Source: Halobacteriota archaeon
GTDB taxonomy: Archaea; Halobacteriota; Syntropharchaeia; DAOWMC01
Reading direction: 5' to 3'
DNA: 64,000 nucleotides
Assembly: GCA_034190245.1 (NCBI GenBank)
Contig: JAXHTJ010000001.1
Span: forward strand, 7,597-71,596
Below the pieces are notes generated by a model. That model had not been told where the DNA came from, ran no database searches, and was given only the letters and a program-made list of their open reading frames with translations. Position 1 is the first letter of the stretch. Every line of letters begins with the position of its first letter. This document shows, piece by piece, positions 9,174 to 63,867 of the stretch. The position numbers were made by a program, and so were the translations under genes.

Positions 9174-9186
9174 TTGTTTTGAATAC

Positions 9187-9205
9187 CTTCCTTTGGGAAG
9201 TTTTT
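9187..9205 (+). terminator. Hairpin (cttcc-tttg-ggaag) followed by T5 just after the DUF362 gene
   Basis: Read directly from the sequence at 9187-9205. Confidence 0.3.
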
Positions 9206-9245
9206 AAGTATCTCAGAAGAAGATAATTTTCAGTCTGGTGTTAAT

Positions 9246-9725: not shown

Positions 9726-9829
9726 GGGGAAGGGAATGTCAATAACTCCTGATAAATAATATGACAAAGTCAAGGTATACAATCAAAGAAAACTTTCATA
9801 TCCAATCGGCATAAACTCATCATGAAGAT

Positions 9830-11500
9830 ATGCAAGATATAAAAGACCTCATCGAGAGGTATGCGCTGCAGAACGCTGTTAAATATGGATCAACACCAAA
9901 AGTAGATGCAGTTATAAAGAAGCTTCTGGGAGAGCACAAAGATCTGCGCCCGAGAGCAAAAGAGATCATACCGATAGTCCGAGAAGAGCTTGGTAAGATA
10001 GAGGATATGAGTGCCTCTGAGTGTGCGGATCGCCTGAAGGCAATCGCTCCCGAACTACTTGAAGAGCTAAGCGAAGCAAAAGAGCAGAAGAAGGGGCTAC
10101 CCGATCTGAAGGTCGATGGTGATGTGGTTATGCGATTTGCACCCAATCCGAACGGCCCACCAACGCTCGGGAGTGTCAGAGGAATCATAATAAATTCAGA
10201 GTATGCAAAAAGATACGATGGGAAGTTCATCATCCGATTTGACGATACCGACCCTCAGACCAAAAGGCCGTTGATAGAGGCTTATGAGTGGTATCTTGAG
10301 GATTGTGAGTGGCTTGATGCAAAACCCGATGAAGTTGTAATCGCTTCTGACAGAATTGATCTTTATTATGAGTATGCAAGAACTCTGATAGACATGGGAA
10401 AAGCGTACGTCTGTTTCTGCTCCGGAGAGGAATTTAAGAGTTACAAGAACTCGGCAAAAGCGTGTCCGCACCGGAATTATGTCCCTGATGAAAATCTAAA
10501 GCAATGGGATGAGATGTTGGCCGGTGGTTACGAGGAGAAGGAAGCCGTGCTCAGGATCAAAACAGATATTGAAAACCCAAATCCTGCCCTTAGGGACTGG
10601 GTCGCTTTCAGGATAGTGAAAGCAACACATCCAAGGACGGATGATAGGTATATTGTCTGGCCGATGCTCGATTTTGAATCTGCAATAGAGGACCATATCC
10701 TGAGTGTTACACACATCATACGCGGTAAGGATCTGAGAGACAGCGAGAGAAGACAGCGATTTTTGTATGATCATCTCGATTGGGAGTATCCGAAGACGAT
10801 TCATTGGGGCCGGATAAAGATTCACGAGTTTGGCAAGTTCAGCACATCCTCTCTTAGGGAAGGAATCGAGAAGGGGGAGTATACAGGTTGGGATGACCCA
10901 AAACTGCCCACTCTGCGCGCTTTGAAGAGAAGGGGGATCCAACCCCTGGCCATACGAAATTTTATGATAAGTTTTGGGGTTGGGGAGACCGATATAAGCC
11001 TGAGTCTCGAGACTTTGCATGCAGAGAATAAAAAGGTGGTGGATCCGATAGCAAATAGGTACTTCTTCGTCTGGGATCCTGTCGCAGTGGTTATTGAAGG
11101 GGGGAGGACGGTTGCATACCCACCGGTTCATCCAAGTAAGAAGGAACGCCGTGAGATCAAACTGGGATCGGAACTGCTCATCTGTAAAAAGGATGCATCA
11201 ACTCTCTCTTCAGGTGACAGGGTGAGACTCAAAGATCTATATAACATAGAAATCACGAGCCCGAGTCCTATGAAGGCGAAATTCATAAGTGATGAGCCCG
11301 GTAAGGAGAAGATAATACACTGGGTCCCTTCTGACGGGATAAAGGTCAGAGTGATCTCTTCCGATGGGGATATGAGCGGTATAGGTGAGCCATTGATACG
11401 AAAAGAGGTGGGGAATGTTGTTCAGTTTGAAAGATTCGGTTTTGTCAGGATAGATTCAGTTACAGAAGACGGAGTTGTCGCATATTTTGCTCATAGATAA
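9830..11500 (+). CDS. gltX: Glutamyl-tRNA synthetase (archaeal/eukaryal-type GluRS)
   Basis: 556-aa class I aaRS with HIGH-like FAPNPNGPPTLGS and KMSKS-like region, in the archaeal GluRS architecture. Confidence 0.88.
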   Translation: MQDIKDLIERYALQNAVKYGSTPKVDAVIKKLLGEHKDLRPRAKEIIPIVREELGKIEDMSASECADRLKAIAPELLEELSEAKEQKKGLPDLKVDGDVVMRFAPNPNGPPTLGSVRGIIINSEYAKRYDGKFIIRFDDTDPQTKRPLIEAYEWYLEDCEWLDAKPDEVVIASDRIDLYYEYARTLIDMGKAYVCFCSGEEFKSYKNSAKACPHRNYVPDENLKQWDEMLAGGYEEKEAVLRIKTDIENPNPALRDWVAFRIVKATHPRTDDRYIVWPMLDFESAIEDHILSVTHIIRGKDLRDSERRQRFLYDHLDWEYPKTIHWGRIKIHEFGKFSTSSLREGIEKGEYTGWDDPKLPTLRALKRRGIQPLAIRNFMISFGVGETDISLSLETLHAENKKVVDPIANRYFFVWDPVAVVIEGGRTVAYPPVHPSKKERREIKLGSELLICKKDASTLSSGDRVRLKDLYNIEITSPSPMKAKFISDEPGKEKIIHWVPSDGIKVRVISSDGDMSGIGEPLIRKEVGNVVQFERFGFVRIDSVTEDGVVAYFAHR

Positions 11501-11546
11501 TCCCGTAAAAATTCCCAATCAAAAATTTTAAAAAGGTGAACTGATA

Positions 11547-12833
11547 ATGAAAGAATCAATGTACAAGTCATATGAGGATCTACCCAAGATAAAACTCCCA
11601 GAAGGTAATAGTGATATAAATATCAGCGATTCAACTATTAGAGATGGTTCGCAGATGCCCGGCATCGTGATGAAGGGCAGACACAAACTCCAGATCTTCG
11701 AATATCTGCATCGGATAGGGGTCGAAAAGCTGGAGACTTTTCTATTCACAAAAGGTGATCAAAGCATAGTAAAAGAGATGCTTAACAGGGGATATGAAAT
11801 CCCGGAGATTACTGGCTGGGCAAGAGCAAATCCAAAGGATATAGACTATGTAATAAATATGGATGGGATCGAAGAGACCGGGATTTTGATGTCTGTCTCG
11901 GATTCACACATTATTGACAAAATGGGACTCAAAAACAGGGAAGAAGCCGAAAAAAAATATTTGGAGGCTTTAGATTATGCAATAGATCATGGTCTTCGTG
12001 TGAGATGCCATCTAGAAGACGTGACCAGATCAGATGTCGAAGGATTTCTCATTCCATTCACTAAAAAGATTATAGAAAGGTCACCAGATGCGATTATTCG
12101 ATTATGTGACACCCTGGGTTATGGAGTACCATTTATCGATTCAATCTATCCATACAGCTTACCCAAAATGATCCGTGAGATGAAGAATATCGGTGTCAAG
12201 AACATCGAGACACACGTTCACGATGACTTTGGGCTCGGTTCGGCTACTTCACTTGCAGGTTTCTGGTATGGAGCCAATTGGTCAAGTCTGACATTTCTGG
12301 GAATCGGTGAGAGGGCCGGGAACTCTGAGATCGAGAAGATGCTGATATTTTTAGAGTACAGATTGGAGGGCTTTCACAAGTATAATCTGGAGTGCTTTAC
12401 GGAGTTTTCGAGGTACATAGAGGATGAACTGGGGATCAGAGTGCCGAGAAACAAAGCTGTAGTGGGAAAGAACATCTTTGCTCATGAATCCGGAATTCAT
12501 ACAGCGGGTGTGATAAAGAACCCGTTCACCTATGAGCCATATCCACCTGATCTTGTCGGCGGAACGAGACAGATTATGATCGGCAGCACTTCGGGAACCG
12601 AGGTGATAAGATTTAGGGTTGAGGAGGCGATGAAAGAGCTGATGCATCTGGATGTATCCATCAAAAAAGATGATCACAGGATTCAGTCCATTCATAAAGA
12701 CATTCAGAAGTTGTATGATGAAGGTGAAAGAGTCTCCTGCATATCGGATGAAGAGATTCGAGGGTATGTCGAGAAGTATTATATGCTCCGCCCGATAATA
12801 GAGAAGGATATTGCGTCAGAGAAGGAAGATTAG
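11547..12833 (+). CDS. HMGL-like family protein (2-isopropylmalate / homocitrate / citramalate synthase family)
   Basis: DSTIRDGSQ and HVHDDFGLGSATSLAG motifs resemble the LeuA-family DxxLRDGxQ and HxHNDxG motifs. The specific activity cannot be assigned. Confidence 0.6.
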   Translation: MKESMYKSYEDLPKIKLPEGNSDINISDSTIRDGSQMPGIVMKGRHKLQIFEYLHRIGVEKLETFLFTKGDQSIVKEMLNRGYEIPEITGWARANPKDIDYVINMDGIEETGILMSVSDSHIIDKMGLKNREEAEKKYLEALDYAIDHGLRVRCHLEDVTRSDVEGFLIPFTKKIIERSPDAIIRLCDTLGYGVPFIDSIYPYSLPKMIREMKNIGVKNIETHVHDDFGLGSATSLAGFWYGANWSSLTFLGIGERAGNSEIEKMLIFLEYRLEGFHKYNLECFTEFSRYIEDELGIRVPRNKAVVGKNIFAHESGIHTAGVIKNPFTYEPYPPDLVGGTRQIMIGSTSGTEVIRFRVEEAMKELMHLDVSIKKDDHRIQSIHKDIQKLYDEGERVSCISDEEIRGYVEKYYMLRPIIEKDIASEKED

Positions 12834-12977
12834 TGTTTTAGCAAGTTGGTTTATATACTCGATGAATCTGGTCATATTTCCACAATAGGAAGAATGAATA
12901 GGTATAGTCTAATTTTTTTAAAAAGCTCCCTTGTTGCAAAAGGTTATTAGAATACCCGACATAATAGAAAGAATAAA

Positions 12978-13568
12978 ATGTCAACCGTAAAAGAGGCAAT
13001 AGAAGGGAGAAGAAGCATAAGAAAGTACAAGCCAGATCCAGTACCGGATGAATCTCTCTTGCAGATCCTTGAGGCGGCACGGCTTGCACCATCAGGATCG
13101 AACACCCAGCCATGGCGTTTCATCGTTGTTAAGGGCGAGGAGACTAGGAAGAAGCTCAAGGAAGCTGCATTTAACCAGAGATTTGTCGGACAGGCACCGG
13201 TAGTAATCGTTTGCTGTGGCGATCTCACCTGTTGGAGGCAATTATCAAAGAGGGCCACTGATTTGACCCCTGTGATGGAGGAATGGGGTCTAAAAGACGT
13301 GACCTCACGGATGACGGCAACGGTCAGAAACGTCGCAATCGCAGTGGAGCACATGGTACTTCAGGCTGAAGAGCTTGGTCTTGGCACTTGCTGGGTCGGA
13401 CTCATCGACAGGAAGAAGGTGAGGGAGATGCTCAAGATACCGGATCATCTCGTGATTGTTTCTTTACTTCCCATCGGCTATCCTGCGGAAGATCCGGGAC
13501 AAAGGCCGAGATTTGGGCTCTATGATATCGCCTTTAGTGAAGATTATGGCAGAAGTTTTGAGGTATGA
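12978..13568 (+). CDS. Nitroreductase family protein
   Basis: RRSIRKY… and SGSNTQPW motifs. Confidence 0.75.
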   Translation: MSTVKEAIEGRRSIRKYKPDPVPDESLLQILEAARLAPSGSNTQPWRFIVVKGEETRKKLKEAAFNQRFVGQAPVVIVCCGDLTCWRQLSKRATDLTPVMEEWGLKDVTSRMTATVRNVAIAVEHMVLQAEELGLGTCWVGLIDRKKVREMLKIPDHLVIVSLLPIGYPAEDPGQRPRFGLYDIAFSEDYGRSFEV

Positions 13569-14035
13569 AGTTCTACTCAGATTTTGCAGATAAATATGAT
13601 GTAATGATCACCTGGAGCAGGCGAGAAGAGTTACAGGCCCCCTTCTTCAGAAAGGTTTTTGATAAGCACAATGTGAAATCAGTTTTAGATTGTGCCTGTG
13701 GTACCGGTTTTCACACGATCATGTTATCAAAGATGGGATATCATGTCGAAGGTTGCGATATCACTCCCGGAATGATCGAAAAATCCCGATTGAATGCTGC
13801 GAAGGATGGGTTGAATTTGAACTTCGTCCAATCTGACTTTAAAGAGATGGTTGGCAAATTCGATAAAAAATTTGAGGTGGATTCCACAGATTATAATCCG
13901 ATCTCAAAGGATAAGCTATCGGATCTGATGAAAAGAGCGGGTTTTGGTAAACTCAAATTTTATGGGGATTTTGACTTTACCGAATTTGATGAAAGAAAGA
14001 GTGAAAATCTTATTGTGGTTGGGATTAAAGGATGA
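13565..14035 (+). CDS. Class I SAM-dependent methyltransferase
   Basis: VLDCACGTG glycine-rich SAM motif. The ATGA start overlaps the upstream nitroreductase stop. Confidence 0.6.
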   Translation: MKFYSDFADKYDVMITWSRREELQAPFFRKVFDKHNVKSVLDCACGTGFHTIMLSKMGYHVEGCDITPGMIEKSRLNAAKDGLNLNFVQSDFKEMVGKFDKKFEVDSTDYNPISKDKLSDLMKRAGFGKLKFYGDFDFTEFDERKSENLIVVGIKG

Positions 14036-14123
14036 CACTGAAGAGGTTTTGATGACTCTTCACAATAAAGAATAACTTTTATCATTAAGTGGATACCAAT
14101 GCATTGTCATTGGGGGCTAAAAG

Positions 14124-14687
14124 ATGGAACTTAAAGAGGCGATTTTAAAGAGAAGAAGCATCAGAAGATTCACCGACTATCTCGTTACGGATGATGAGAT
14201 AAAAGAGATGATCGAGGCTGCGAGATGGGCTCCTTCATGGGCGAATACTCAATCGTGGGAGTTTATTGTAGTCAGAGACAAGAAAATTATCGAAGATGTG
14301 ACAGCGACATATTCAGAGAAGAATCCTGCGACCAAGTGTTCGAATTCTGCTTCTGTGTTGATTGTCGCTTGTGCAAAGAAAGATATTTCGGGGTATAAAA
14401 AGGAAGAGAAGAAGACAAAATTTTCGGATTGGTTCATGTTCGATCTTGGCATGGCCGTTCAGAATCTTCTGTTGAGGGCTCATGAGCTTGGGCTCGGAAG
14501 CGTTGTCGTTGGACTCTTAGACCACGATGCTTGCAGAAAGGTCCTTGGTGTACCGGATGAATATGAGGTGGCTGTGGTAGTTCCAATCGGAAGACCCGAT
14601 GTAGAAGGAAAAGAGGGGCCTCCGCGAAAAGATCTAAAAGAGTTTGTGCATCTCGACAATTTTGATCGAACCTTTGATGTGATGTGA
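14124..14687 (+). CDS. Nitroreductase family protein (second paralog)
   Basis: RRSIRRF and PSWANTQSWEF motifs. Confidence 0.75.
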   Translation: MELKEAILKRRSIRRFTDYLVTDDEIKEMIEAARWAPSWANTQSWEFIVVRDKKIIEDVTATYSEKNPATKCSNSASVLIVACAKKDISGYKKEEKKTKFSDWFMFDLGMAVQNLLLRAHELGLGSVVVGLLDHDACRKVLGVPDEYEVAVVVPIGRPDVEGKEGPPRKDLKEFVHLDNFDRTFDVM

Positions 14688-14764
14688 CGAAGATAGAACT
14701 TTGATGAGATAACTTCCGAAAGATAGAAGGGGATGTAGGTCTATACGGATTGTGAGGTGAATAG

Positions 14765-15235
14765 ATGAAATCGCTTCTCGTCTATTATTCGAGGACTGGA
14801 ACGACTAAAAAGGTTGCCGAAGCCATTTCAGAAAAAATTGACTGCGATATTGAAGAGATCGTCGATACAAAGAATAGGTCAGGGATTTTTGGATTTTTAA
14901 CTTCGGGCTTGGAAGCAATACAGAAGAAAGAAGTGCCGATTGAGGAGATCAAGAAAGATCCCTCCGAATACGATCTTGTCATAATTGGCTCCCCTACCTG
15001 GATGCACAATACACCATCTCCAGTTAGAACCTACCTATCCCAGGTAAAAGGTCAAATTGATAACGCTGCCTTCTTCTGCACCTATGGTGGCACCGGTTAC
15101 GATAAAGTCTTTGAAGAGATGCAAAATATCTCAGGAAAAAAACCGATCACTTCGTTAAATCTCAGAGCGAGGGATGTGAAGAAGGAAGATAACACAGAAA
15201 AGGTCAACGAGTTCGTCAGTGGCCTATCGGGTTAG
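14765..15235 (+). CDS. Flavodoxin-like protein
   Basis: MKSLLVYYSRTGTTKKVAE is a flavodoxin phosphate-binding loop. Confidence 0.65.
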   Translation: MKSLLVYYSRTGTTKKVAEAISEKIDCDIEEIVDTKNRSGIFGFLTSGLEAIQKKEVPIEEIKKDPSEYDLVIIGSPTWMHNTPSPVRTYLSQVKGQIDNAAFFCTYGGTGYDKVFEEMQNISGKKPITSLNLRARDVKKEDNTEKVNEFVSGLSG

Positions 15236-15260
15236 GTTTCTTTTGATTCACGTCGCGGGA

Positions 15261-17447
15261 TCATTTCGGCCTGGCAAACTGCAATGCTTCACCTCTAGGT
15301 TTCGGTTTTTCGTAATTGAATTGGGCTTCAACAACTCCCGTAATCTTAAGAGATCTCACCTCAATCTTTGAAAAGTCCAGACTGAAGAGGATAACAAAAA
15401 GAGCAGCAACTCCTATTAAAATTGGAAGAATTGCGTCAGATATGCTTATTGAGAGCGTAAAAACGAACAGTATTATGAGAAGTCTGAGTAAAAATATCTT
15501 GAGTTCATATTTTAGCAAGTTGTTCACATGAGTTAGATTTTTAAAGGCCTCGACATATCTAATATTTCCTTCTGTTGCCTTTTTAAAGTTTTTGCGAGCA
15601 TGATGGAATCTGAGGGGGGCAACTACACTGCCCTTTCCATACTCTGCATACGTGCATCCAATGTTGTTGTAAAATTCAGAATCATCATTTAATTCTAAAG
15701 CCATCTTAAATTCTGCTATAGCATCATTATATGCTCCTCTCTTACTTAAAACGAGTCCGAGGCCGTTATGGGAATAACCAAGATCCTTATTTAGATTTAT
15801 CGCTTCCCTATACTCTTTTTCAGCATTGTCATACTCTTTGAGTATATAAGACGAATCTCCAAGATTGGCATGGGCAATGTCAAGATACGGATCCAATTCA
15901 ATAGCCTTTTTATAATCCTTTTTTGCCTTACTATATTTCTCCAATTTAAAGTAAGCAAGCCCTCTATTGTTGTAAGCAGAGACATATTCTAAATCGAGCT
16001 CTATTGCCTTTCCAAAGTCTCCTATTGCCTCGTCATACAACGATAGATCGAGATAAACACTTCCTCTATCATAATAGGCCAGAGCATAATCTAAATCGAG
16101 TTCTATAGCCGTATTATAATCCTCTATAGCCTCATCATACATCATCAAATCATGATAAGTAAGTCCACGACCGATGTAGGCATTGACATAGTCCGGATTC
16201 AGATCAATTGCTCTGTTGTAGTCATTTATTGCTTCATCGTATCGCTTTAAATTGTAGTTAGCAAGCCCGCGATTGTAGTAAGCTAGGTCATACTCGGAAT
16301 CGAGATCTATTGCCTTACTATTGTCCTCTACTGCTTCATCAAACATCATTAATTCATGATAAGCAAGCCCGCGATTGTAGTAAGCATCAACGTATGATGG
16401 ATCAAGCTCTATTGCTCTGCTGCACGCTTCTATCGCTTCATCGTATCTTCCTGAGTCATAATACTCAACTCCATTATTGAAATAATCCTCAGCACTACTC
16501 TTATCAACATTTTCTGATCTTTTATCTCCTTTAAGTTCAGAATAGAGATTCTCTCGGTTGTTGTGAGCTTCGGTATAATCGGGATCAAGCTCTATTGCTT
16601 TGTCGTAGTCTTTTATTGCCTCATCATACCGTTTTAGATTATATTTGGCAAGTCCCCTGTTGTTGTAAGCAGAAGCATCGCAAGGGTCAAGCTTGATTAC
16701 CATACTTAGGTCCTCGATTGCCTTCTCGTAATTTTTTAATAGCGAGTATGTATTTGCACGATTGAAATAGGCAACAGTATGGTTTGGATCCAGTTCGATT
16801 GCCCGGTTAAAGTCCTCTATCGATTCATCATATCTTCCCATATCAGAAAAGACACTTCCACGACCGTTGTAAGCGGCAATGTATTTGGAATTGAGCTTAA
16901 TTGCCCTTTCATAGTCCTCTAATGCCTCATCGTATCTTTTTAAAAGATAGTATGCACTTCCACGATTGTTAAAAGCATTTATATCCTTTGGATCAAGTTC
17001 AACAGCCTTACTCAAATCCTCGATTGCTTCATCGTATCTTTTTAAGATATAATAAACGGTTCCGCGATTGTTGTAAACATGAGCAAAGTTTGGATCGATA
17101 TCTATTGCCCTACTGTAGTACTCTACCGCCTCATCATATCTCTCCTGATTATGGTAGTCAAGCCCACTGTTATAGTTCGTAAGAACTTCCGCCGTTTTAA
17201 GGGTTTTTTCAAGTGCGCAACAGGCTATTGCACGCTCTTTGATGTCATCATCTACCGCGATCTCCCCGGCAAAAGTAAGATATACAATTGAAAGGATGTA
17301 ATCTTTATCTTCTCCAAATCTGGTCCCTTTTACGATCAACTCCTTGGCAAGGGAATCAGGATCGCTTGCCTTCTCTTTGACAAGGTCGTGAGCCTTTGCT
17401 ACTTCTCCACTCTTAAGAAGAGCTTCTATTTCTTCTGATTCTGACAT
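15261..17447 (-). CDS. Tetratricopeptide-repeat (TPR) protein with C-terminal membrane anchor
   Basis: More than 15 tandem 34-aa TPR units (YNNRGxxYxxLxRYDEAIEDYxKAIELDP) and a C-terminal hydrophobic segment. Confidence 0.8.
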   Translation of the reverse strand: MSESEEIEALLKSGEVAKAHDLVKEKASDPDSLAKELIVKGTRFGEDKDYILSIVYLTFAGEIAVDDDIKERAIACCALEKTLKTAEVLTNYNSGLDYHNQERYDEAVEYYSRAIDIDPNFAHVYNNRGTVYYILKRYDEAIEDLSKAVELDPKDINAFNNRGSAYYLLKRYDEALEDYERAIKLNSKYIAAYNGRGSVFSDMGRYDESIEDFNRAIELDPNHTVAYFNRANTYSLLKNYEKAIEDLSMVIKLDPCDASAYNNRGLAKYNLKRYDEAIKDYDKAIELDPDYTEAHNNRENLYSELKGDKRSENVDKSSAEDYFNNGVEYYDSGRYDEAIEACSRAIELDPSYVDAYYNRGLAYHELMMFDEAVEDNSKAIDLDSEYDLAYYNRGLANYNLKRYDEAINDYNRAIDLNPDYVNAYIGRGLTYHDLMMYDEAIEDYNTAIELDLDYALAYYDRGSVYLDLSLYDEAIGDFGKAIELDLEYVSAYNNRGLAYFKLEKYSKAKKDYKKAIELDPYLDIAHANLGDSSYILKEYDNAEKEYREAINLNKDLGYSHNGLGLVLSKRGAYNDAIAEFKMALELNDDSEFYNNIGCTYAEYGKGSVVAPLRFHHARKNFKKATEGNIRYVEAFKNLTHVNNLLKYELKIFLLRLLIILFVFTLSISISDAILPILIGVAALFVILFSLDFSKIEVRSLKITGVVEAQFNYEKPKPRGEALQFARPK

Positions 17448-52493: not shown

Positions 52494-53834
52494 ATGGATC
52501 AAGACGAAAAATTGGTTAGAGCACCTGGTAGAATAACCACACAACAGAGTGAATTTCTCGAAGGGGAGGTCAGAAGTGGCAGGTTTGCCTCGGTGAGCGA
52601 AGCTCTCAGAGCAAGTATAAATGCTTATGGGCAGCAGATATTAAGGGACGAAGTTTACCTTATAGGCGAAGCTTTGATGGGTGATGAGCCGGAACTAGCG
52701 CACATCGATCTTATGATAGGGGATAAAAAAGGCCAGATAGGGTTAGCATTTGCGAACAGCATAAGCCAATTATCAGTAGGCCACACACCCCTACTTGCAG
52801 TGGTGAGACCCAACCTACCATGCAAACCTTACACGCTTGTGGTACCCAAGGTGACTATCAAGGACATGGAGGACACGGGTAAGATCTTTGGTCCTGCACA
52901 AGCAGCAGTGGCAAAAGCGATAGCCGATTCCGTCGAAGAGGGAGTCATACCGAAAGAGAGTGTTGAAGACCTCGTAGCTATTGTAAGTGTCTTTATCCAT
53001 CCTGAAGCAAAAGATTACAATAAAATTTTTAGGTATAATTATGGTGCGACCAAATTAGCTCTTAAACGGGCAATGGAAGGATTTCCATCTGTTGATAAGG
53101 TCCTTTATGAGAAGGACAGGTCCACTCACCCTGTGATGGGATTTAAAGTGACACGTCTGTGGGATCCACCATACCTCCAGGTTGCCCTAGATATAACAGA
53201 ATGGGAAAAAGTAAGCAGAGTTCTGAAGGATTTGCCCAAGAATGATCACTTGATCATAGAAGTGGGCACACCACTGGTGAAGAGGTTTGGTATTGAGGTG
53301 ATAAACAAGATAAGAGAGGTACGCCCGGACACTTTTATCATCGCCGATCTGAAGATACTGGACACCGGAAACCTGGAAGCCAGAATGGCATCTGATTATG
53401 CTGCTGACGCCGTGGTGATCTCCGGGCTGGCACCTATACCAACCATAGAAAAGGCGATTGAAGAGGCAAATAAAACTGGCATATATTCTGTAATCGACAT
53501 GTTAAACGTCTCCAATCCGATAGACCTCCTAAAAAAATTGAGTGTGAAACCGGGAGTTGTCGAGCTGCACAGGGCGATAGACGCAGAACTTGCCGGGAGT
53601 GAACACAAGTGGGGAGACATCTCAAAGATTAGAGAGATAGACGAAAAGATTGTTGTTGCGGTCGCTGGAGGAATCAGGGTTGATAATGCTCCTGAAGCGT
53701 TGAAATCCGGCGCCAATATCCTAGTAGTCGGGCGGGCGATAACCAATGCCAAGGACATTGAAGGGGCTGCAAGAAGATTCCTGTCGCTGATGAAAGAAGA
53801 GATAGATCAGTTCAGAGTGATGACGGACTTCTGA
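52494..53834 (+). CDS. fae-hps: Bifunctional formaldehyde-activating enzyme / 3-hexulose-6-phosphate synthase (Fae-Hps) with an unusual N-terminal RHH-like extension
   Basis: Fae core …[26 protein letters not shown]…. The HPS (OMPDC-like) part includes …[11 protein letters not shown]… and …[12 protein letters not shown]…. The first ~50 aa ([30 protein letters not shown]) look like a CopG/ParD ribbon-helix-helix. Confidence 0.8.
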
Positions 53835-55553: not shown

Positions 55554-55687
55554 TTCATCCCTTGCATTTATAAGGTTAAGTTAACTACCATAATTCTTTA
55601 ATTTGGACTATATCCAAAACCATTTAAGTCGTTAGCTATATAAAATATGTTAATTTGAAAGGTTTTGAAGTGTATACAAGGTGAATA

Positions 55688-56983
55688 ATGATCGAACTCA
55701 TTTGGTATGGAATCGCTCTTTTTCAGGTCCATATCAATCCACGGATTCCCCCTAAATGGCAACGAAAGTTGGCTGAAAGAAGGGTGATTCGCCAGATTCA
55801 ACGTGCCTACAAGGATGTCCCCTATTACCGGAAGAGGTATGATGAAGCAGGGGTGGATATCAGTTCCATACGCCATATAGAAGACTTAAAAAAGCTTCCG
55901 TGTATCACCAAAGAAGAGGTCCGACAAAATTTTCCGGAAGGCATGCTTGCAGATGGAGTTGATATTGACAGATGCCATTATTCGGCAACAGCAGGATCCA
56001 CTGGTAAACCACTCTCATTCATATTTTCTAAAGCAACGTTTGCTTTCTATATTCTTACCAGTGTACGAGTCTATACAATGATTGGATATAGGCCATGGCA
56101 TAAAATGTGCTACATCAAATACACAGCTGTGGATGCTGCCCCCCACCTCAATATGGGTCCATTCTTCCGACAGAGCCATATCTCCTCCAATATCCCGGTG
56201 GAAGAGCAGATCGCCCGTCTCAGGGAAGAAAAACCGGATCTACTTATAGGCTATTCATCCAGCATCTCGGAGATTGCCCGGTATATAACGCCAGAAGATA
56301 GGAAGCACTTTCGTCCCAAATTTATCTCTGTCAATTCAGGGATGTCAACTCAGGAGGAGCGCAAATACATTTCGAGTGTCTTTGACTGCCCGGTCTATGA
56401 CGAATACTCAACAGAAGAGACCTGGATGATCTCTTCCCAGTGCCATCATAACAATTACCACCTATTTACTGACAATGTATGGGTGGAATTTCTGGATGAG
56501 GAAGGAAATGATGTAACTTCAGATAAGACAGGCGAGATAGTTCTCACCACCATGCGCAGCCCAGCCATGCCGTTCATACGATACAGGATCGGAGACTTGG
56601 GGAGGCCTAGCGACCGTACCTGTCCTTGTGGTCGAAGCTTTCCCTTGATGGAATCGCTTGAGGGGCGCTCCAACGATTCTTTCATCTTACCAAGTGGTAG
56701 ATTTATCTCACCATCCAAAATCCATACAGTGTTTTACCCCTTTATAAAAAAATACCCCAATACGATAGAGCAATTCAAAGTCATTCAGAAGGAAAAAGGG
56801 CTGATTGTCATCCAACTTGTGAAGGGCAAAGAGTACAGTGAAGACCGCTTCAAGGAAGTGATAGACAGGTTACATGAAATCTTTGATGAACCTGTGACAA
56901 TAACAGTAGAGATGGTGGAGGAGATCCCTAAGAAATATATCAAACGTAAAGCTATTGAATCGTGGGTAGAAAAATCGAGGTGA
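55688..56983 (+). CDS. Phenylacetate-CoA-ligase-like (PaaK / coenzyme F390 synthetase family) adenylate-forming enzyme
   Basis: …YSATAGSTGKPLSF… AMP-binding motif and the PaaK-family N-terminal region (…VPYYRKRYDEAGVD…). Confidence 0.7.
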   Translation: MIELIWYGIALFQVHINPRIPPKWQRKLAERRVIRQIQRAYKDVPYYRKRYDEAGVDISSIRHIEDLKKLPCITKEEVRQNFPEGMLADGVDIDRCHYSATAGSTGKPLSFIFSKATFAFYILTSVRVYTMIGYRPWHKMCYIKYTAVDAAPHLNMGPFFRQSHISSNIPVEEQIARLREEKPDLLIGYSSSISEIARYITPEDRKHFRPKFISVNSGMSTQEERKYISSVFDCPVYDEYSTEETWMISSQCHHNNYHLFTDNVWVEFLDEEGNDVTSDKTGEIVLTTMRSPAMPFIRYRIGDLGRPSDRTCPCGRSFPLMESLEGRSNDSFILPSGRFISPSKIHTVFYPFIKKYPNTIEQFKVIQKEKGLIVIQLVKGKEYSEDRFKEVIDRLHEIFDEPVTITVEMVEEIPKKYIKRKAIESWVEKSR

Positions 56984-56984
56984 T

Positions 56985-58019
56985 ATGAAGGGAGTGAGGA
57001 AATGGCTGATACTGTCTCTAACGGTTAGTGTAATAGCCATAATTGTAGTCTTATCTGTTACCATGACCGAAGAAACGGTAGATAGTCTTGCTAAAATCCG
57101 TCCAGAATACCTTCTTTTGGCTGTTGTTGCTCGTGCCATGTGCTGGGTAGCCATGGGATCACGTATAAAAATCTTAAGCAGGGTGGTTGGCTGTAAAATA
57201 AGTTTGCTACAGTCCATAAAAATTGTACTGCCCGGAACTTTTGCCGCTGGTGTTACTCCTTCATATATCGGTGGGGAACCGGTTAGGATTTATCTCTTGA
57301 GTAAGAAGGGCCTGTCTATTGGAGATGCAGCGGCAGTTGATTTAGGTGGAATGATATTGAATGGATTGGTAGTAGCGATGATGCTTCCATTTGCCTGGTT
57401 CATATTTAGAGATACGATCAGACCAAACTTCGTCCTATCATCTGTCTTTTTATTTGTTGGGATATTATTTGGTCTTGCTTGGGGATTTGGTATATATGGT
57501 ATGCTATACCCGGAACAACTTAAAAAACTCCTTGATCGTCTCGGAAGATCTAAACTTATCAGTGAGATAACCTTTGGTAGATCAGAGCAGATTATCAGTA
57601 GAGTTGTTATTGAATTTGATAATTTTCGTAATGGTTTGCTAAGGTTTGTTAGAGAGGGCCGAAGAGAATTAATATTGGGACTACTCTGGACGATGGCATA
57701 TTGGTTCTTCCTGATAATACTACCGTCTATTATTTTGTTGGGCATGAATCTGGATCCAATGTGGGTACCATCTATGGCAGCTCAGGTGATACTTATGACC
57801 ATCGTTATGATTCCAATAGCACCAGGTGGTAGCGGAATTGCCGAGATCGGTGCTGCATCACTCTACTCTGTCGTCCTGCCTGCAGATGGTATACAGTTGC
57901 TGGGTGTATTTGTGGCGATATGGAGGTTTGTGGAGCATTACATACCTTTGCTGATTGGGGGACTGGTCAGTTTGAAAGTGATGCGGGAGATAGACCTGAA
58001 TAAATTGATCGAAGGATGA
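56985..58019 (+). CDS. UPF0104 / lysyl-phosphatidylglycerol-synthase-TM-region-like (MprF flippase-domain-like) membrane protein
   Basis: About 8 TM helices. Begins 1 nt after the ligase gene. Confidence 0.55.
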   Translation: MKGVRKWLILSLTVSVIAIIVVLSVTMTEETVDSLAKIRPEYLLLAVVARAMCWVAMGSRIKILSRVVGCKISLLQSIKIVLPGTFAAGVTPSYIGGEPVRIYLLSKKGLSIGDAAAVDLGGMILNGLVVAMMLPFAWFIFRDTIRPNFVLSSVFLFVGILFGLAWGFGIYGMLYPEQLKKLLDRLGRSKLISEITFGRSEQIISRVVIEFDNFRNGLLRFVREGRRELILGLLWTMAYWFFLIILPSIILLGMNLDPMWVPSMAAQVILMTIVMIPIAPGGSGIAEIGAASLYSVVLPADGIQLLGVFVAIWRFVEHYIPLLIGGLVSLKVMREIDLNKLIEG

Positions 58020-58153
58020 AGCTCATTGTTGTATTTGGATAGACATTTTGAGAATTTATATAGATGATGAAAGACATATAAATAAAAGAGATAGAAAAAT
58101 TCTGGAGTTCTGATATCAATGAGTGGGGGGCTCTTTGAACAGATATATTAAAA

Positions 58154-59026
58154 GTGATAACTATGGAAGATGATTTGGCACATCCGCTTAAACCGTACGA
58201 TAAACTGATAATTAATGTTGCTCTTACCGGAATGGTACCTACAAAGAAAGACTCGCCTTTTGTTCCGACTACCGTTGATGAGATCATAGAGGATGCGATC
58301 AAGTGTGCCTCAGTAGGTGCAAGTATCCTTCATATCCATGCTCGTGATAGTGACGAGGCGCCAACATATAAAGCAGAGGCCTACGCAGAAATAATCGAAG
58401 GTATCAGAAGTAAATGCCCTGACGTTATCATATGCGTAACAACCAGTGGTAGGACATATGGAGAATTTGAGAAACGTTCTGAGGTTCTAGAACTTCGTGA
58501 TCATGTTAAACCGGATATGGCAAGTTTGACTCTCGGTTCTATCAACTTTCCTGACCAGACCAGTATTAATGAACCGGAAACGATACTTCGATTGGCAAAA
58601 AAGATGAAATCCGTAGGGATAAAACCCGAACTCGAAGTCTTTGATACCGGAATGATAAATACTGCAAGATATCTCTACCGCAAGGGAGTTATTGAGCCCC
58701 CATTCTATTTTAATATCTTATTCGGATCGATATATGCAACACAAGCAAGAATGTCAGATCTCTGTTATCTGGTAAGTCAATTACCACAGGGATCTATTTG
58801 GGCAGGTGCAGGAATTGGGATTTTTCAATTGATCATCAATAGTGCATCAGTTATAATGGGTGGTAATGTTAGAACTGGTATTGAAGACAATATCTGGTAT
58901 GATCATGAAAAGACGGAGTTGACAACCAACGTAAAAACGATTCAGAGGGTTTGCGAGATTGCTGCAATAATCGGACGTGAGATAGCAACACCGTCAGAAA
59001 CAAGAAAGATGTTGGGATTTGTTTAG
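58154..59026 (+). CDS. Beta-keto-acid cleavage enzyme (BKACE / DUF849; 3-keto-5-aminohexanoate cleavage enzyme-like)
   Basis: TIM-barrel Kce-like motifs …NVALTGMVP…, …ILHIHARD… and …EVFDTGM…. Confidence 0.7.
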   Translation: MITMEDDLAHPLKPYDKLIINVALTGMVPTKKDSPFVPTTVDEIIEDAIKCASVGASILHIHARDSDEAPTYKAEAYAEIIEGIRSKCPDVIICVTTSGRTYGEFEKRSEVLELRDHVKPDMASLTLGSINFPDQTSINEPETILRLAKKMKSVGIKPELEVFDTGMINTARYLYRKGVIEPPFYFNILFGSIYATQARMSDLCYLVSQLPQGSIWAGAGIGIFQLIINSASVIMGGNVRTGIEDNIWYDHEKTELTTNVKTIQRVCEIAAIIGREIATPSETRKMLGFV

Positions 59027-59056
59027 GTTAAAAATAGTGTAGGAATTGATATTAAT

Positions 59057-59617
59057 ATGATTAGAAGGGCGGAAGAATCCGATATTGAGAGAATATTGAG
59101 TGTATTATCCTGCTATAATTTCAAAGTACTGAATCCTGTTGACGATTCCCCCATTGATGATGAAAGTGAAGAACTGATAACACTCTACAATGGTGCAAGT
59201 GAATTAAACCTTGATAAAGGGTTCGTTGCGGAATATGAAGGGAAAATTGTTGGTTTTTCACATTACAAACGACACGAAGACGGTAAAGCAAAGACGACGT
59301 TACTCACCGTCATGCCAAAATATAGGAAACATGGATTCGGTAAGAAACTTCAGATTGCCCGGATGAAGGACGCATACGATAATGGATATGAGATCCTTAT
59401 GACATTCACAGAGAATCCCAAAGCATCAAAGTGGTATGTCAAACATTTTGGATATCAGGTAATAGGAACAGATGTCTGTTATCACCGTCTACATTTTATA
59501 CCGCTGAGCAATCGGATTATATGGGGCGTTCATTATGGTATATATGGGTATGATAAAGTAGATGTGTTGGAATGTGATCTGGGTGAATTTTTTATGAATG
59601 CGACATCATCTTTTTAG
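59057..59617 (+). CDS. GNAT-family N-acetyltransferase
   Basis: …RKHGFGKKL… acetyl-CoA-binding motif. Confidence 0.7.
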   Translation: MIRRAEESDIERILSVLSCYNFKVLNPVDDSPIDDESEELITLYNGASELNLDKGFVAEYEGKIVGFSHYKRHEDGKAKTTLLTVMPKYRKHGFGKKLQIARMKDAYDNGYEILMTFTENPKASKWYVKHFGYQVIGTDVCYHRLHFIPLSNRIIWGVHYGIYGYDKVDVLECDLGEFFMNATSSF

Positions 59618-59623
59618 CACAAA

Positions 59624-60592
59624 CTACCACCCAAGGAGTCGTTCGAAGAATTCCGTGATTGGAGTTACTATTGTGCTCACTATCTCAGGAAGATAAATGT
59701 CGGATTCTTCTTCCTGGGATTCGGATGTTGGTGAAATAACAACAGTAGGTGTTAACGTTTGATTGAGAGTTGGTTCAATTGTTGGCGTGGATGTTGGAGT
59801 TGGTGTAGCCGTTGGAGTGGCTGTCGGAGTTGGGGTGGGTATTGGTGTAGGAGTTGGTGGGGTTATAGGTGTTGGCGTGGGTGTAGGTATCGGTTTTGCT
59901 CTCACCTTATTTGAGAAATCGCTTTCACCAACGTCATTTACTGCCTTAACCATGTAGTAGTGACTTCTCCTATTTTTTATATTGTCACTGTCATTAAAGG
60001 TGGCCCAATCGGATGATATAATGGCGTGAAGAGTCCGTGTTTGATGGGATAGCCGTCTATAGATCGTGTAACTGGTCACCTTTGAACCACCATCATTTGA
60101 CGAGGGGTCCCAAGCGATTTCTATATAATCATGGCCAACATCCGTTATTGTTAGATTTGTTGGTGGAGATGGAGCTGATGCTGATGTCTTAAAAAAGATA
60201 TCATCTCCGTAACTTATTCCATCAAAATTCAATGCACATGCTCTGAAGTGATAAGTTGTTCCAGGACTCAAACCAGTGATATCTTCACGAAATGAACCTG
60301 GCGATGACATGGATATATTAGCGGTTGAGCATCCATAATATTTCGTTAAGCCATATTCAAACCAAACCTGGCAATCTTCTTGATATTGAAAATCAGAAGG
60401 AACGCCTGTTGAATCAAGATTACCATTCAAAATAGCAGTTGAAGTTGTAATACAAGAGGCATTATCAGTCGTTGCTAGGGGTTTACCAGCTTTTACTAAC
60501 CTTAATGAAGCAGCATTGTCCGATGCATCAACCACCACAATAACTGATAAAACCAATCCCATAAATATGAGTATTGCAAGAATTTTTTTCAT
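59624..60592 (-). CDS. Secreted protein with two fibronectin-type-III-like domains and a long Pro/Thr linker
   Basis: Signal peptide [23 protein letters not shown]. …[11 protein letters not shown]… and …TSYTIYRR… are FN3-like. [33 protein letters not shown] linker is present. Confidence 0.6.
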
Positions 60593-60756
60593 GTGTAGAT
60601 ATACCAATGTATCTTATTTTGTATATATTTTTTGTTAGTCACTATACACCATATCTAACAAAACCTTGCAAAGCATGTTCCAACTCTGGAGGTTGAGTTA
60701 TTAATCACCGTAAAATTTAATATTTATTTATGGCATAATTTATATGGGGTAAGAAA

Positions 60757-61753: not shown

Positions 61754-61906
61754 TTAAAAGACATAACCTTCATAAAACTCTTCAAGAAATGGATTCTTTT
61801 CATGTTCTTCTAATATTTTTCCCATTTTTAATTCATGTGAGAAATAGTTGGTCAGGCTTGTTTTACCGGCGCCTACACATCCCTCGAAGCTTATTATTTT
61901 TGTCAT
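61754..61906 (-). pseudogene. Truncated N-terminal fragment of a P-loop deoxynucleoside/nucleotide kinase
   Basis: MTKIISFEGCVGAGKTSLTNYFSHELKMGKILEEHEKNPFLEEFYEGYVF then a stop. Only the Walker-A region of a dNK-like kinase is present, and it overlaps the 3' end of the upstream gene. Confidence 0.4.
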
Positions 61907-62819
61907 TTGGATTACCGTTCTTATTTTTTGACCTCGTTTTAGAACACGCAAAAATTGATATTAATAAAGCTAAAATTGAAAAGATAACAGTGAAATAAGC
62001 CCAACAGGGGAGGGTTTCTTCTACTCCTTGAGTGGAACTAACAAGTATAGACAGGGCAGCAACTAAAACAGCTATAGCAGTGAAGATTATTCCTATCGAT
62101 GTATCAAGTTTTGTTTCAAATCGGTTTGTTCTTTTTTCAATTTCGTCAATCCGTTGTGCTGCCTCGGTAAATAAAGCACTTTTCAACCAATAATCATAAT
62201 CATCAAGATCCTTACGGCGTGGTGGTCGAGGGAATTTTTTACTCTCTTCCTTAAAAGTGGTAGTCTTGGCAAAATCGATCGTAGCAAGTTTTTCCCCTTT
62301 CTTAATTATAACAGCTTCGTCTGATAGATTATATATTGGACAAAAGAGGTGACCGAACCAACCTGGATCAACTTGAGGGCCACCAACCCAGAGTAAACCT
62401 TTATAAGCCCATTTTACCCTTATGTTCCAACGACCGATAAGGAATCGGGGGATGTTAACTATTTCTCTTGTTTTGATTATAGCAACCTGAAAAGGGGGTA
62501 TGACTATCTTATCATTTTTTTTGTTCAACTCTTCCATTATTCCTCCAAGAGCGTATTTATCCCCTACCGTCAGCTGGTATGAGGCGGCTTTTAAATTTTT
62601 TTTGTCAAATGGATAGATTAACTTAAATTCTTTTACATATCTCTCGATTTCATCGCTCAAAAGTATTCCTGGCTCCCCGTTTGGGTCCTTTGCAGGATCA
62701 GGAAATTTTTCCAGAATATCATCTATAGATAAATGTTCCTCTATTTCCTCCAAAGAATATCTATTTAAAAGTTCATCCAAAGAGAGTTTCTTCAATTTTT
62801 CTGGGTTGACTTTGTTCAT
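61863..62819 (-). CDS. dCTP-deaminase/dUTPase-fold domain protein with N-terminal extension and C-terminal 2-TM tail
   Basis: …ILLSDEIERYVKEFKLIYPFDKKNLKAASYQLTVGD… and …GGPQVDPGWFGHLFCPIYNLSDEAVIIKKGEKLATIDF… match Dcd/Dcd-Dut signature regions. The last ~90 aa contain two hydrophobic helices (IGIIFTAIAVLVAALSILV; YFTVIFSILALLISIFA). Confidence 0.6.
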   Translation of the reverse strand: MNKVNPEKLKKLSLDELLNRYSLEEIEEHLSIDDILEKFPDPAKDPNGEPGILLSDEIERYVKEFKLIYPFDKKNLKAASYQLTVGDKYALGGIMEELNKKNDKIVIPPFQVAIIKTREIVNIPRFLIGRWNIRVKWAYKGLLWVGGPQVDPGWFGHLFCPIYNLSDEAVIIKKGEKLATIDFAKTTTFKEESKKFPRPPRRKDLDDYDYWLKSALFTEAAQRIDEIEKRTNRFETKLDTSIGIIFTAIAVLVAALSILVSSTQGVEETLPCWAYFTVIFSILALLISIFACSKTRSKNKNGNPNDKNNKLRGMCRRR

Positions 62820-63867
62820 ACTCTACCACCATAGTACTTGTTCTTCTATCAATAAGTTCTTGGTCTGTTGGTCCAGTCCCAACAAAATCTATTTTTATCC
62901 CTATCTCCAATTCTAACCACGAGATAAACTCTTTAGTTTTTTGTGTTAACCCACTATAATCCTTCACACCTTTATTTTTATAATCTAAATAATCTACCCC
63001 CATCAAGGCTATTTCAGTTGGCCTGTTTACGGAGATGGCCTTTTTCACGATATCAAGATCGAATCTTGCTACCCTACGTAGTTTTTTGGTTACTGATGTG
63101 AATTCTTGAATTTCATAGGGATAACCACTTTCGCACTGGATAGTTTTCCAGTTAATTTCTTTTGGAAGGGGACCTGAGTTCCCACTTACTCTGATTGGAA
63201 ATGTCCGTATCACCATAACAATATCAGAAACCACTAACGGACTTATTCCGACTTCACTCAAAAACCCTGAAACTGTAGTATCTCTACTGGTGGCATAGGG
63301 GTAATAAGGGCTATGGTATAAAGACAAGCCAAACCCTTGTGTTCCTTCAATGACAATTTTTTTACCATTCAAATGATGATTCATTACGTTTTGAGAAACA
63401 CAAGTTAGATACGGCTTTAATTCGGGGACATCCCTAGCTAACTTAAAATCACCCCCTCTTAAAACCCGATTGGCAACAGCAATACCTGTGCCTGTGCATG
63501 TAGAGCCAATTCTCTTGTTAAGTTCCAATTCCTCTTCTTTTTGGTTATACTCTTCATTTATAATAGCTGCATTAGAATCTATTCCCAATCTATCTGGACT
63601 TAGGTCGAATGTGTCTATCTCCTCAAATAAAAGATCGAGGTCTATAAGGCAACCTGCTGCAAGGAGCAGTTTCGTATTATCATTTACTACTCCTGCAGGG
63701 ACGGATCTAAGTACTATCTGTCCATGATTTATGGTAATAGTATGCCCTGAGTTCGGCCCTCCACATCTAACCGCTACATCAAATCCTTTTTCACGGCACA
63801 TATAGGCCGTTATTTTACCTTTTCCTTCAGATCCAAACTGTCCACCCACAACTACTTTAACAGGCAA
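62773..63867 (-). CDS. Adenylosuccinate-synthetase-family protein (short archaeal/PurZ-like type) with noncanonical P-loop
   Basis: MPVKVVVGGQFGSEGKGKI…GGPNSGHTI…GTQGFGLSLY…VTKKLRRVARFDL…. Canonical PurA has GxQWGDEGKGK, whereas here the Asp is Ser and Trp is Phe. Start is TTG at 63865-63867 with an AGGTGA RBS. Confidence 0.7.
   Translation of the reverse strand: MPVKVVVGGQFGSEGKGKITAYMCREKGFDVAVRCGGPNSGHTITINHGQIVLRSVPAGVVNDNTKLLLAAGCLIDLDLLFEEIDTFDLSPDRLGIDSNAAIINEEYNQKEEELELNKRIGSTCTGTGIAVANRVLRGGDFKLARDVPELKPYLTCVSQNVMNHHLNGKKIVIEGTQGFGLSLYHSPYYPYATSRDTTVSGFLSEVGISPLVVSDIVMVIRTFPIRVSGNSGPLPKEINWKTIQCESGYPYEIQEFTSVTKKLRRVARFDLDIVKKAISVNRPTEIALMGVDYLDYKNKGVKDYSGLTQKTKEFISWLELEIGIKIDFVGTGPTDQELIDRRTSTMVVEYEQSQPRKIEETLFG

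Follow-up and report, generated by a model that had tools for sequence, protein, structure and literature searches.

In MprF and in the gpgSDF system, a cytoplasmic modifying enzyme is fused to, or encoded beside, a membrane translocase. The translocase domain of MprF is PF03706, which is usually present in one copy per genome (PplT survey); a lipid-flippase function has been proposed for GpgF and for the PplT proteins, that of GpgF being unverified. Archaeal PF03706 proteins (arCOG00899) are predicted flippases of glycosylation pathways, and their genes are typically linked to glycosylation genes (arCOG analysis, PMC5898192). Canonical members of the BKACE (beta-keto-acid cleavage enzyme, DUF849) family are Zn-dependent: from a beta-keto acid and acetyl-coenzyme A (acetyl-CoA) they form acetoacetate together with an acyl-CoA shortened by two carbons (flavophos preprint). 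Here we compare these systems with an island of four genes in a 64,000-nucleotide (nt) stretch of the genome of a Halobacteriota archaeon (Syntropharchaeia, DAOWMC01; assembly GCA_034190245.1, contig JAXHTJ010000001.1, positions 7,597 to 71,596 of the forward strand), the whole of which is referred to as the window. The island encodes a CapK/PaaK-like adenylate-forming ligase, a flippase-like PF03706 protein, a BKACE and a GNAT N-acyltransferase, and its first two genes follow the same logic of a cytoplasmic enzyme encoded beside a translocase.

Our preferred reading, to which we give a probability of roughly 0.45, is that the island consists of two conserved two-gene modules (ligase with flippase-like protein, BKACE with GNAT) which cooperate to decorate a lipid-anchored component of the cell envelope. 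The most likely function would be the supply of an acyl group, N-acylation or amidation, and translocation of that component. All four families are known; neither pairing seems to have been characterised. The features of the island are as follows, the promoter-like elements having been read from the sequence:

55636..55645, + strand: TATA-box-like motif CTATATAAAA, about 43 nt 5' of the ligase ATG
55688..56983, + strand: CapK/PaaK-like adenylate-forming ligase, 431 amino acids, soluble (CapK_C PF27533, PaaK motifs)
56985..58019, + strand: stand-alone PF03706/UPF0104/PplT flippase-like membrane protein, 344 amino acids, 7-8 transmembrane segments (PF03706, TIGR00374)
58020..58153, + strand: A+T-rich spacer of 134 nt with BRE (B recognition element)/TATA-like elements
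58154..59026, + strand: BKACE (DUF849) TIM-barrel enzyme, 290 amino acids from GTG 58154 or 287 from ATG 58163 (PF05853)
59057..59617, + strand: GNAT acyl-CoA N-acyltransferase, 186 amino acids, soluble (PF00583, PF13508)

The list of open reading frames (ORFs) shows the four co-directional genes, separated by 1, 134 and 30 nt, exactly as described in the original prediction, whose four family calls (PaaK-like, UPF0104, BKACE and GNAT) are also borne out by profile or motif matches. The NCBI model of a protein identical to the BKACE (P0121) has 287 amino acids, which fits the ATG at 58163 and gives a middle gap of 143 nt. The ligase, the BKACE and the GNAT all look soluble, the ligase having no transmembrane segments in its hydrophobicity profile.

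The ligase gene is preceded by a Shine-Dalgarno-like AAGGTGA at 55678-55684, and the TATA-box-like motif upstream is a putative promoter of the first unit. The protein had no match in the Pfam copy searched, but its precomputed Pfam family, which is also that of its homologues, is CapK_C. PaaK-like enzymes adenylate carboxylates, and some of the ester- or amide-forming ligases among them acylate O or N nucleophiles with no need of CoA. In its adenylation motifs and overall alignment the window ligase matches PaaK and the AjiA1, NatL2-type and BagE/FevW ligases (5.8e-22 to the BagE_FevW model). It aligns with the PaaK-like structures 4r1l (6e-31), 2y27 (5e-21), 6wuq (4e-16) and 6siw (5e-15); its P-loop SATAGSTGKP lies opposite SSGTTGNP/SSGTTGKP of 4r1l/2y27, its hinge IRYRIGD opposite their IRYRTRD, and a CPCGR motif also aligns. 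The protein thus carries both the phosphate-binding loop and the RYR-x-x-D hinge of the ANL/PaaK-like enzymes, and should be able to adenylate a carboxylate.

A methanogen-like host, suggested by the nearby MtxX and Fae-Hps genes, and weak similarity to the PaaK and F390 models might indicate that this gene encodes a true phenylacetate-CoA ligase or F390 synthetase, and that the cluster is a coincidental group of housekeeping genes. However, all NCBIfam matches of the ligase (PaaK, DVU_1553, FlxY and F390-synthetase models) fall far below their cutoffs: 111.7 bits against 646.3 for PaaK (TIGR02155), 131.5 against 700 for haloarchaeal PaaK (NF041878), 72.5 against 458.7 for F390 synthetase (FtsA, TIGR03335) and 74.6 against 251.9 for the F390-related TIGR02304. 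Its nearest relatives belong to a CapK_C clade that is uncharacterised and mostly bacterial, the surroundings contain no paa genes, and its partner is a flippase-like membrane protein in a conserved pairing. We rejected a bona fide PaaK or F390 synthetase on the NCBIfam scores; the explanation is effectively refuted, and the F390 synthetase case that the original prediction had raised against itself is closed. Where an organism is named, relatives of the ligase at 55-69% identity are bacterial (Spirochaetota, Smithella, Desulfomonilia, Bacillota) whereas homologues of the flippase-like protein are archaeal, which suggests that the ligase gene may have been transferred between domains.

The flippase-like protein matches PF03706 (LPG_synthase_TM) with E=6e-39 and 134.7 bits (cutoff 33.4) over residues 9-325 of 344, spanning model positions 2-302 of 302, and so the check that had been suggested for the UPF0104 assignment came out in its favour along the full length of the domain. 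It also matches TIGR00374 (flippase-like, 3e-43) and is polytopic, with 7-8 hydrophobic segments; we consider it a predicted lipid translocator. The same membrane domain, at full length, is found in MprF, GpgF and the C-terminal domain of AglD. Unlike MprF and AglD, the window protein has neither an aminoacyl-tRNA-dependent synthase domain nor a fused GT2, and is partnered instead by an ATP-dependent adenylating enzyme; no Pfam match to the MprF synthase domain (DUF2156/PF09924) was found in this protein or its neighbours. Its score against the GpgF model NF053789 is 74.9 bits (cutoff 320), and no glycosyltransferase or deacetylase gene is adjacent. An adenylate-forming ligase does not appear as a partner in the published PF03706/PplT/arCOG00899 partner lists (PplT survey; arCOG analysis, PMC5898192). 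The ligase stop TGA (56981-56983) lies within GAGGTGA straight before the flippase-like ATG at 56985 (GAGGTGAtATG), an arrangement that suggests translational coupling, and the start of the second gene is probably coupled to the stop of the first in this way.

This ligase-PF03706 pair is strongly conserved, as is the BKACE-GNAT pair. In the archaeal locus L003 the ligase is 80% and the flippase-like protein 84% identical to those of the window and the 1-nt gap is kept, with a paralogous CapK-like ligase before the pair and a restriction-modification system after it. Orthologues of the ligase (57-69% identity) occur with a PF03706 gene in Bacillota and two deltaproteobacterial-type lineages, the loci in question being L096 (Bacillota, 10-nt gap), L094 (Smithella) and L100 (Deltaproteobacteria). 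Overall, a PF03706 gene lies in the cluster at five of the eight distinct ligase loci, and two of the remaining three have little or no downstream DNA. Since PF03706 is usually single-copy per genome, chance adjacency to the ligase is very unlikely. The bacterial PF03706 partners have no BLAST similarity to the archaeal one although their ligases are 57-61% identical, and the pairing must therefore have been kept, or re-created, with different PF03706 lineages. A scan of genome contigs with a single ligase query returned only two distant Bacteroidota loci (L001 and L002, 29-32% identity), which were set aside. In L005 (8294-9584), where the archaeal ligase is 69% identical, the flippase is replaced downstream by a 44-amino-acid phosphatidylserine-decarboxylase-like fragment and a PP-loop (Asn-synthase/QueC-like) ATPase.

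The second module begins with the BKACE, which matches PF05853 at 2.7e-89 and 299.6 bits (cutoff 24.8). Aligned to 2y7d (3.5e-50) and 3no5, it keeps LHIHAR, PELEVF and GIEDN, of which LHIHAR, PELEV and GIEDN correspond to H46/H48, E143 and E230/D231 of Kce. It thus belongs to the family, having the TIM barrel and the HxH, E and ED motifs in common with Kce, and would be expected to share the chemistry of acetyl-CoA and a beta-keto acid. All 54 members of its clade that were compared have H57, H59, E156, E158, E241 and D242, and at least 90% of them have F160; F160 occupies the position of Kce Tyr145, so that the residue is Phe in the window BKACE, while the Tyr of Kce contacts the CoA sulfur (flavophos preprint). 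The same Tyr-to-Phe change is found in BsfD, which carries out C-acetylation without releasing an acyl-CoA (flavophos preprint), and by analogy it may divert the window enzyme to BsfD-like C-acetylation. None of the four named BKACE equivalogs, among them those for Kce, 3-oxoadipate and dioxohexanoate, is matched by the window enzyme above its curated cutoff. A Kce-like specificity is therefore not upheld, given 272.9 bits against a cutoff of 382 for Kce (NF052387) and the Phe in place of the CoA-contacting Tyr, and the expectation that the enzyme makes a beta-aminoacyl-CoA went beyond the family reaction, which gives acetoacetate and an acyl-CoA two carbons shorter and not specifically a beta-aminoacyl-CoA.

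GNATs move acyl groups from CoA onto amines. The fourth protein is a member by PF00583 (8.6e-10, 39.3 bits, cutoff 20.7) and PF13508 (1e-9, 39.1 bits, cutoff 27), with weak matches below cutoff to WecD (17.7-20.8 bits), RimI (23.1) and MshD (22.5).

We scanned metagenomes with the BKACE clade as anchor and annotated the resulting 80 loci with home-made profile hidden Markov models (HMMs) and clustering. GNAT homologues are adjacent or fused to the BKACE in 32 of these loci. Every locus of the closest BKACE clade, taken at 480 bits or more, has an adjacent GNAT, bar two that end at contig ends, and the GNAT gene mostly lies upstream of the BKACE gene and overlaps it. A further 14 loci (L018, L029, L044, L054, L061, L064, L065, L068, L069, L077, L080, L084, L087 and L088) encode a single-chain GNAT-BKACE fusion of about 445-463 amino acids, and the database homologues P0186 and P0236 are natural BKACE-GNAT fusions. 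In the sister BKACE clade, the gene directly 5' of the BKACE in about 20 loci encodes instead a PglD_N+Hexapep acyltransferase, with DegT aminotransferases and glycosyltransferases nearby in what are amino-sugar or nonulosonic-acid clusters. L074, for example, is a nonulosonic-acid cluster (PseG/PseH-like proteins, NeuB, CMP-transferase, DegT, WbqC, GT2), and L011 is a polysaccharide cluster (sulfotransferases, pyruvyltransferase, deacetylases, GT2). With a GNAT always adjacent or fused in the closest clade and a PglD-like enzyme in its sister, we take the clade to be defined by an obligate N-acyltransferase partner, which sets it apart from Kce and BsfD, and this pairing appears to lie largely in envelope-glycan settings. 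No report of a BKACE in an N-acyltransferase context was found in the searchable BKACE literature, nor anything relevant on BKACE/DUF849 in polysaccharide, GNAT or nonulosonic-acid contexts.

The sister-clade loci resemble the PglD and PseH N-acetyltransferase steps of bacillosamine and pseudaminic acid synthesis, the BKACE adjoining PglD_N+hexapeptide, DegT, NeuB and CMP-transferase genes; a PglD-type enzyme preceding the BKACE suggests that the acyltransferase partner loads an N-acyl group onto an amino sugar. The window differs from those steps in having a GNAT and not an LbH enzyme, and in having no sugar genes.

Two observations on the neighbourhoods of the BKACE-GNAT loci may be added. 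The fusion genes are often next to ATP-grasp or AMP-binding/ATP-grasp genes. In L016, L020, L022, L023, L025, L028, L078 and L079 a family of about 395 amino acids with no Pfam match lies beside the pair (for example L022 12734-13933); it is unrelated to the paralogues of similar length found in the ligase clusters described below.

A soluble catabolic or osmolyte route for a beta-amino or beta-keto acid would account for the BKACE and GNAT with no link to the envelope, an example being the turnover of beta-lysine and N-epsilon-acetyl-beta-lysine via 3-keto-6-acetamidohexanoate. In methanogens a GNAT serves to make N-acetyl-beta-lysine, and Pseudomonas has a pathway in which 3-keto-6-acetamidohexanoate is cleaved; moreover the best characterised match of the BKACE is the lysine-fermentation Kce, and a class-III aminotransferase gene lies near the pair in L028. 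However, besides the Kce cutoff not being reached, Kce Glu14, presumably a binder of the substrate's amino group, aligns with Val in the window BKACE, which argues against an amino-keto-acid substrate. The GNAT has no match to AblB in the NCBIfam results at E<=0.01, the window shows no lysine-aminomutase (KamA-like) motif and there is no aminotransferase or dehydrogenase gene beside the pair, and the neighbours of the relatives are glycan and amide-ligase genes. We consider this route very unlikely.

The neighbours of the BKACE-GNAT pairs also connect this module to the first one. Of the 18 GNAT-BKACE loci that have 4 kb or more of flank, 15 carry an ATP-dependent amide-ligase-type gene (CapK-like, Asn-synthase-like, ATP-grasp, AMP-binding(/ATP-grasp) or Mur-ligase-like) within 5 kb, compared to only 2 of 12 loci of the PglD-type sister clade, which served as an internal control. 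CapK-like ligases occur in seven BKACE loci besides the window and adjoin the BKACE in L009, L028, L035, L038 and L049/50. The ligase, BKACE and GNAT of the window thus fit a recurring triad, with a ligase of a different CapK subfamily. In L009, which has the closest BKACE on a long contig (78% identical), the order is CapK-like ligase, BKACE, GNAT, with no flippase and with a ligase of another CapK-like type (27% identical to that of the window). L074 has a PglD-like acyltransferase, BKACE, PF03706 and GT2 in order and a CapK-like ligase further on, all in one co-directional operon. The same four functional roles are therefore brought together again by non-orthologous members. Archaeal homologues of the flippase-like protein at 56-61% identity lack a CapK-like ligase, one of them facing a classical AMP-binding enzyme.

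By the condition that the original prediction set for its own refutation, co-conservation in related genomes, the idea of a single four-gene operon is weakened and finds no support in the closest relatives, as L003 lacks both BKACE and GNAT, and L009 has no flippase and another ligase. It is possible, though on balance unlikely, that the two modules are independent and merely adjacent, the ligase and PplT protein serving one pathway and the BKACE and GNAT another, with no common product. That the pairs lie apart in the closest relatives, one in L003 and the other in L009, would be expected if this were so, and the company kept by each is different: orthologues of the ligase occur with RND/MMPL exporters, C45-like proteins and paralogues of about 395 amino acids, while relatives of the BKACE occur in glycan and amide-ligase clusters. 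The G+C content of third codon positions is also higher in the first pair (0.48 and 0.39 for the ligase and flippase-like genes, versus 0.35 and 0.35 for BKACE and GNAT). Base composition is in no way unusual. The A+T-rich spacer contains the BRE/TATA-like GAGAATTTATATA, including TTTATATA at 58055-58062, and a second element ATATAAATAAAA at 58076-58087, together a possible internal promoter for BKACE and GNAT, so that the pairs may be separate transcripts. Its folding as RNA is no better than that of shuffled sequences (z=0.69) and it matches no Rfam family; counts of sigma-70 promoters and intrinsic terminators are at or below shuffle expectation, these being bacterial signals that are uninformative for an archaeon. 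What speaks for a connection between the modules is the enrichment of ligase-type neighbours over the internal control, the CapK-like ligase beside BKACE-GNAT in L009 and L028, the single operon of L074, and the GNAT-domain protein that follows PF03706 in bacterial ligase clusters.

If the modules do cooperate, as we prefer to think, they may be co-transcribed, and the BKACE would supply a non-standard acyl-CoA from a beta-keto acid and acetyl-CoA, with which the partner GNAT would N-acylate an amino group. The ligase would adenylate a carboxylate and hand the acyl group on to CoA or, in the manner proposed for VpsH, straight to a nucleophile. It would act on the cytoplasmic side of the membrane, on an intermediate anchored by dolichol or archaeol, which the PplT protein would then move outward. 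We infer the order of these steps and their substrates, and likewise regard a lipid-linked glycan as a likelier acceptor than the head group of a polar lipid.

VpsH of Vibrio cholerae, which has a PaaK/CapK-like fold, is genetically required for glycine to be added to the uronic-acid carboxylate of a bactoprenyl-PP-linked GulNAcA disaccharide (PMC13463779). The window ligase is likened to it by the CapK_C family label and the literature; the chemistry of VpsH is itself a proposal, the window has no uronic-acid or glycosyltransferase genes, and amide formation of this type on a lipid-linked uronic acid is a candidate activity only. In contrast to VpsH and the CapK-like proteins of capsule loci, the orthologues of the window ligase adjoin PF03706 and RND exporters and do not lie in Wzx/Wzy loci.

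Several points weigh against cooperation of the modules on a lipid-anchored acceptor. The four-gene arrangement is not kept in the nearest relatives (L003, L009, L013 and L098), and the TATA-like motif GAGAATTTATATA between the pairs would allow them to be transcribed separately. CapK-like ligases beside other BKACE-GNAT pairs score 87-200 bits with the HMM of the ligase, compared to 743-790 for its orthologues. Flippase activity of PF03706 has experimental support only for MprF. The Phe at the Tyr145 position of the BKACE is that of BsfD, which makes no acyl-CoA, and the hand-off of an acyl-CoA to the GNAT would therefore break. Finally, the seed searches of the 64-kb window turned up no homologue of a glycosyltransferase, of DegT, of Asn-synthase or of ATP-grasp proteins, and other glycan genes (sugar aminotransferase, uronic-acid pathway) were likewise not detected there; nor are the former families among the 25 listed of the window's 102 Pfam families.

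The bacterial relatives of the first module lie in a larger cluster, comprising the ligase, a C45/AAT-like protein, PF03706, a GNAT-domain protein of 335-342 amino acids and an RND/MMPL or MacB exporter, which in L100 is accompanied by an OEP and an adaptor. The GNAT-domain protein follows PF03706 in L096 and L100, where it is of the same family; the proteins that follow in L094 and L098 are unrelated. Bacterial orthologues of the ligase are always accompanied by two to three tandem paralogues of about 395 amino acids, which share 37-62% mutual identity and have no Pfam or NCBIfam match (L094 8348-11974, L096 4158-6567, L097 378-3974, L007 1503-4989, L100 3166-6846). The ligase, the paralogues, the C45/AAT-like and GNAT-domain proteins and the exporter together make up a conserved cluster of anaerobic bacteria that is apparently undescribed. 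In the Smithella locus L094 the cluster runs into genes for an ApeI-like dehydratase, an acyl carrier protein, two radical-SAM proteins and a ketosynthase (12434-15305), and in the spirochaete locus L007 it abuts a 1409-amino-acid BcrAD/HGD-D/DUF2229 protein and PlsB- and PlsC-like acyltransferases (9318-16991), surroundings which hint at a link to unusual lipid biosynthesis. The bacterial partners (the paralogues of about 395 amino acids, the C45-like protein, the RND pump and the paralogous ligase) were not found in the window.

These clusters bear on an alternative in which the island is an analogue of MprF that needs no tRNA, the ligase, the GNAT or both placing a BKACE-derived acyl group on the serine, ethanolamine, glycerol or amino-sugar head group of an archaeol lipid and the PplT protein exposing the lipid on the outer leaflet. 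It would explain why the translocase domain of MprF is found here with a ligase predicted to be translationally coupled to it and why no glycan genes were detected in the window, and the bacterial clusters do look like lipid-export systems, given their RND/MMPL, OEP, LolA-like TP_0789, PlsB/PlsC and BcrAD/HGD-D proteins and, in L094, the dehydratase, acyl carrier protein and ketosynthase genes. However, there is no DUF2156-type synthase domain, relatives of the BKACE-acyltransferase pair are mostly in glycan and amide-ligase clusters, and archaeal PF03706 genes are typically linked to glycosylation (PMC5898192). We rate this alternative as distinctly unlikely. The same low expectation attaches to its widest form, in which the island is an ATP-driven counterpart of MprF, independent of tRNA, that acylates the head group of an archaeal membrane lipid with an unusual acyl group derived from the BKACE and flips it to the cell surface, and in which the bacterial relatives (ligase, PplT, GNAT, C45-like acyltransferase, RND/MacB pump and three uncharacterised paralogues of about 395 amino acids) constitute a system, undescribed but widespread among anaerobes, by which a modified envelope lipid is made and exported. 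We know of no acylated archaeal head-group lipid of this kind, which also weighs against the MprF-like alternative.

As for the pathway first put forward for the island, the making, activation and transfer of an acyl group to a membrane-associated acceptor fit the comparative data (the obligate BKACE-GNAT pairing, its ligase neighbours, the ligase-PF03706 pairing and L074). The membrane-lipid setting stands only in part, since the BKACE-acyltransferase module is better evidenced in a glycan context, whereas the ligase-flippase module is lipid-export-like in bacteria.

Should the two modules indeed cooperate in decorating a lipid-anchored envelope component, BKACE/DUF849, known so far almost only from catabolism and one phosphonate pathway, would gain a biosynthetic role in envelope decoration, feeding an unusual acyl group to a dedicated fused or adjacent N-acyltransferase in glycan- or amide-forming clusters of both Bacteria and Archaea. 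Adenylate-forming ligases would become a new class of partner for the PplT/UPF0104 domain, allowing ATP-dependent, tRNA-independent modification of lipid-anchored molecules, and an uncharacterised surface-glycan or lipid tailoring step would be added to a methanogen-related lineage. The modules are directly testable, as their proteins are small, are soluble except for the flippase, and exist as natural fusions.

The island is flanked by genes for MtxX, Fae-Hps, an SPFH protein, a Na+/H+ exchanger, an fn3 surface protein and PurA; as these are of unrelated housekeeping and surface types, we consider the cluster a discrete island. The presence of MtxX (methanogenesis marker 4) and of Fae-Hps indicates that the host is of methanogen type. 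Pfam annotation of the other 44 genes of the window, together with profile and seed searches, showed none of the four families a second time, and no tRNA or Rfam RNA was detected across the 64 kb. PADLOC gave no match for the four island proteins, and a defence-system reading of the island was dropped for this reason.

Positions 1-48855 of the window hold mostly housekeeping genes (tRNA synthetases, fumarase, deoxyhypusine synthase, thiolases), together with an MMPL-family protein, a DUF1616 protein, a NosD-like protein and a protein with PLD and lamin-tail domains. Immediately downstream of the island, a gene at 59624-60607 (- strand) encodes a secreted protein with an fn3 domain and a long linker rich in Pro and Thr; it is convergent with the GNAT gene and ends 6 nt from its stop; in L009 a PKD-domain surface protein (8807-10273, + strand) comes after the orthologous GNAT. 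These two could be acceptor glycoproteins, or their placement could be coincidental.

Further downstream, at 61863-62819 (- strand), lies a gene for a dCTP-deaminase-like protein (PF22769, 2.3e-16) whose C-terminal membrane region has a weak resemblance to the Pycsar effector PycTM (PADLOC, 1.7e-4). It overlaps by 47 nt the upstream gene for an adenylosuccinate-synthetase homologue (62773-63867, - strand; PF00709, 2e-53). The pairing is unusual and might represent a nucleotide-depletion defence, or simply housekeeping. On the other side of the island, the Fae-Hps ORF (52494-53834, + strand) has an N-terminus about 54 residues longer than the family model, with a weak ParD/ribbon-helix-helix match (4.3e-4) in the extension, which is probably an over-long ORF call and not a true fusion.

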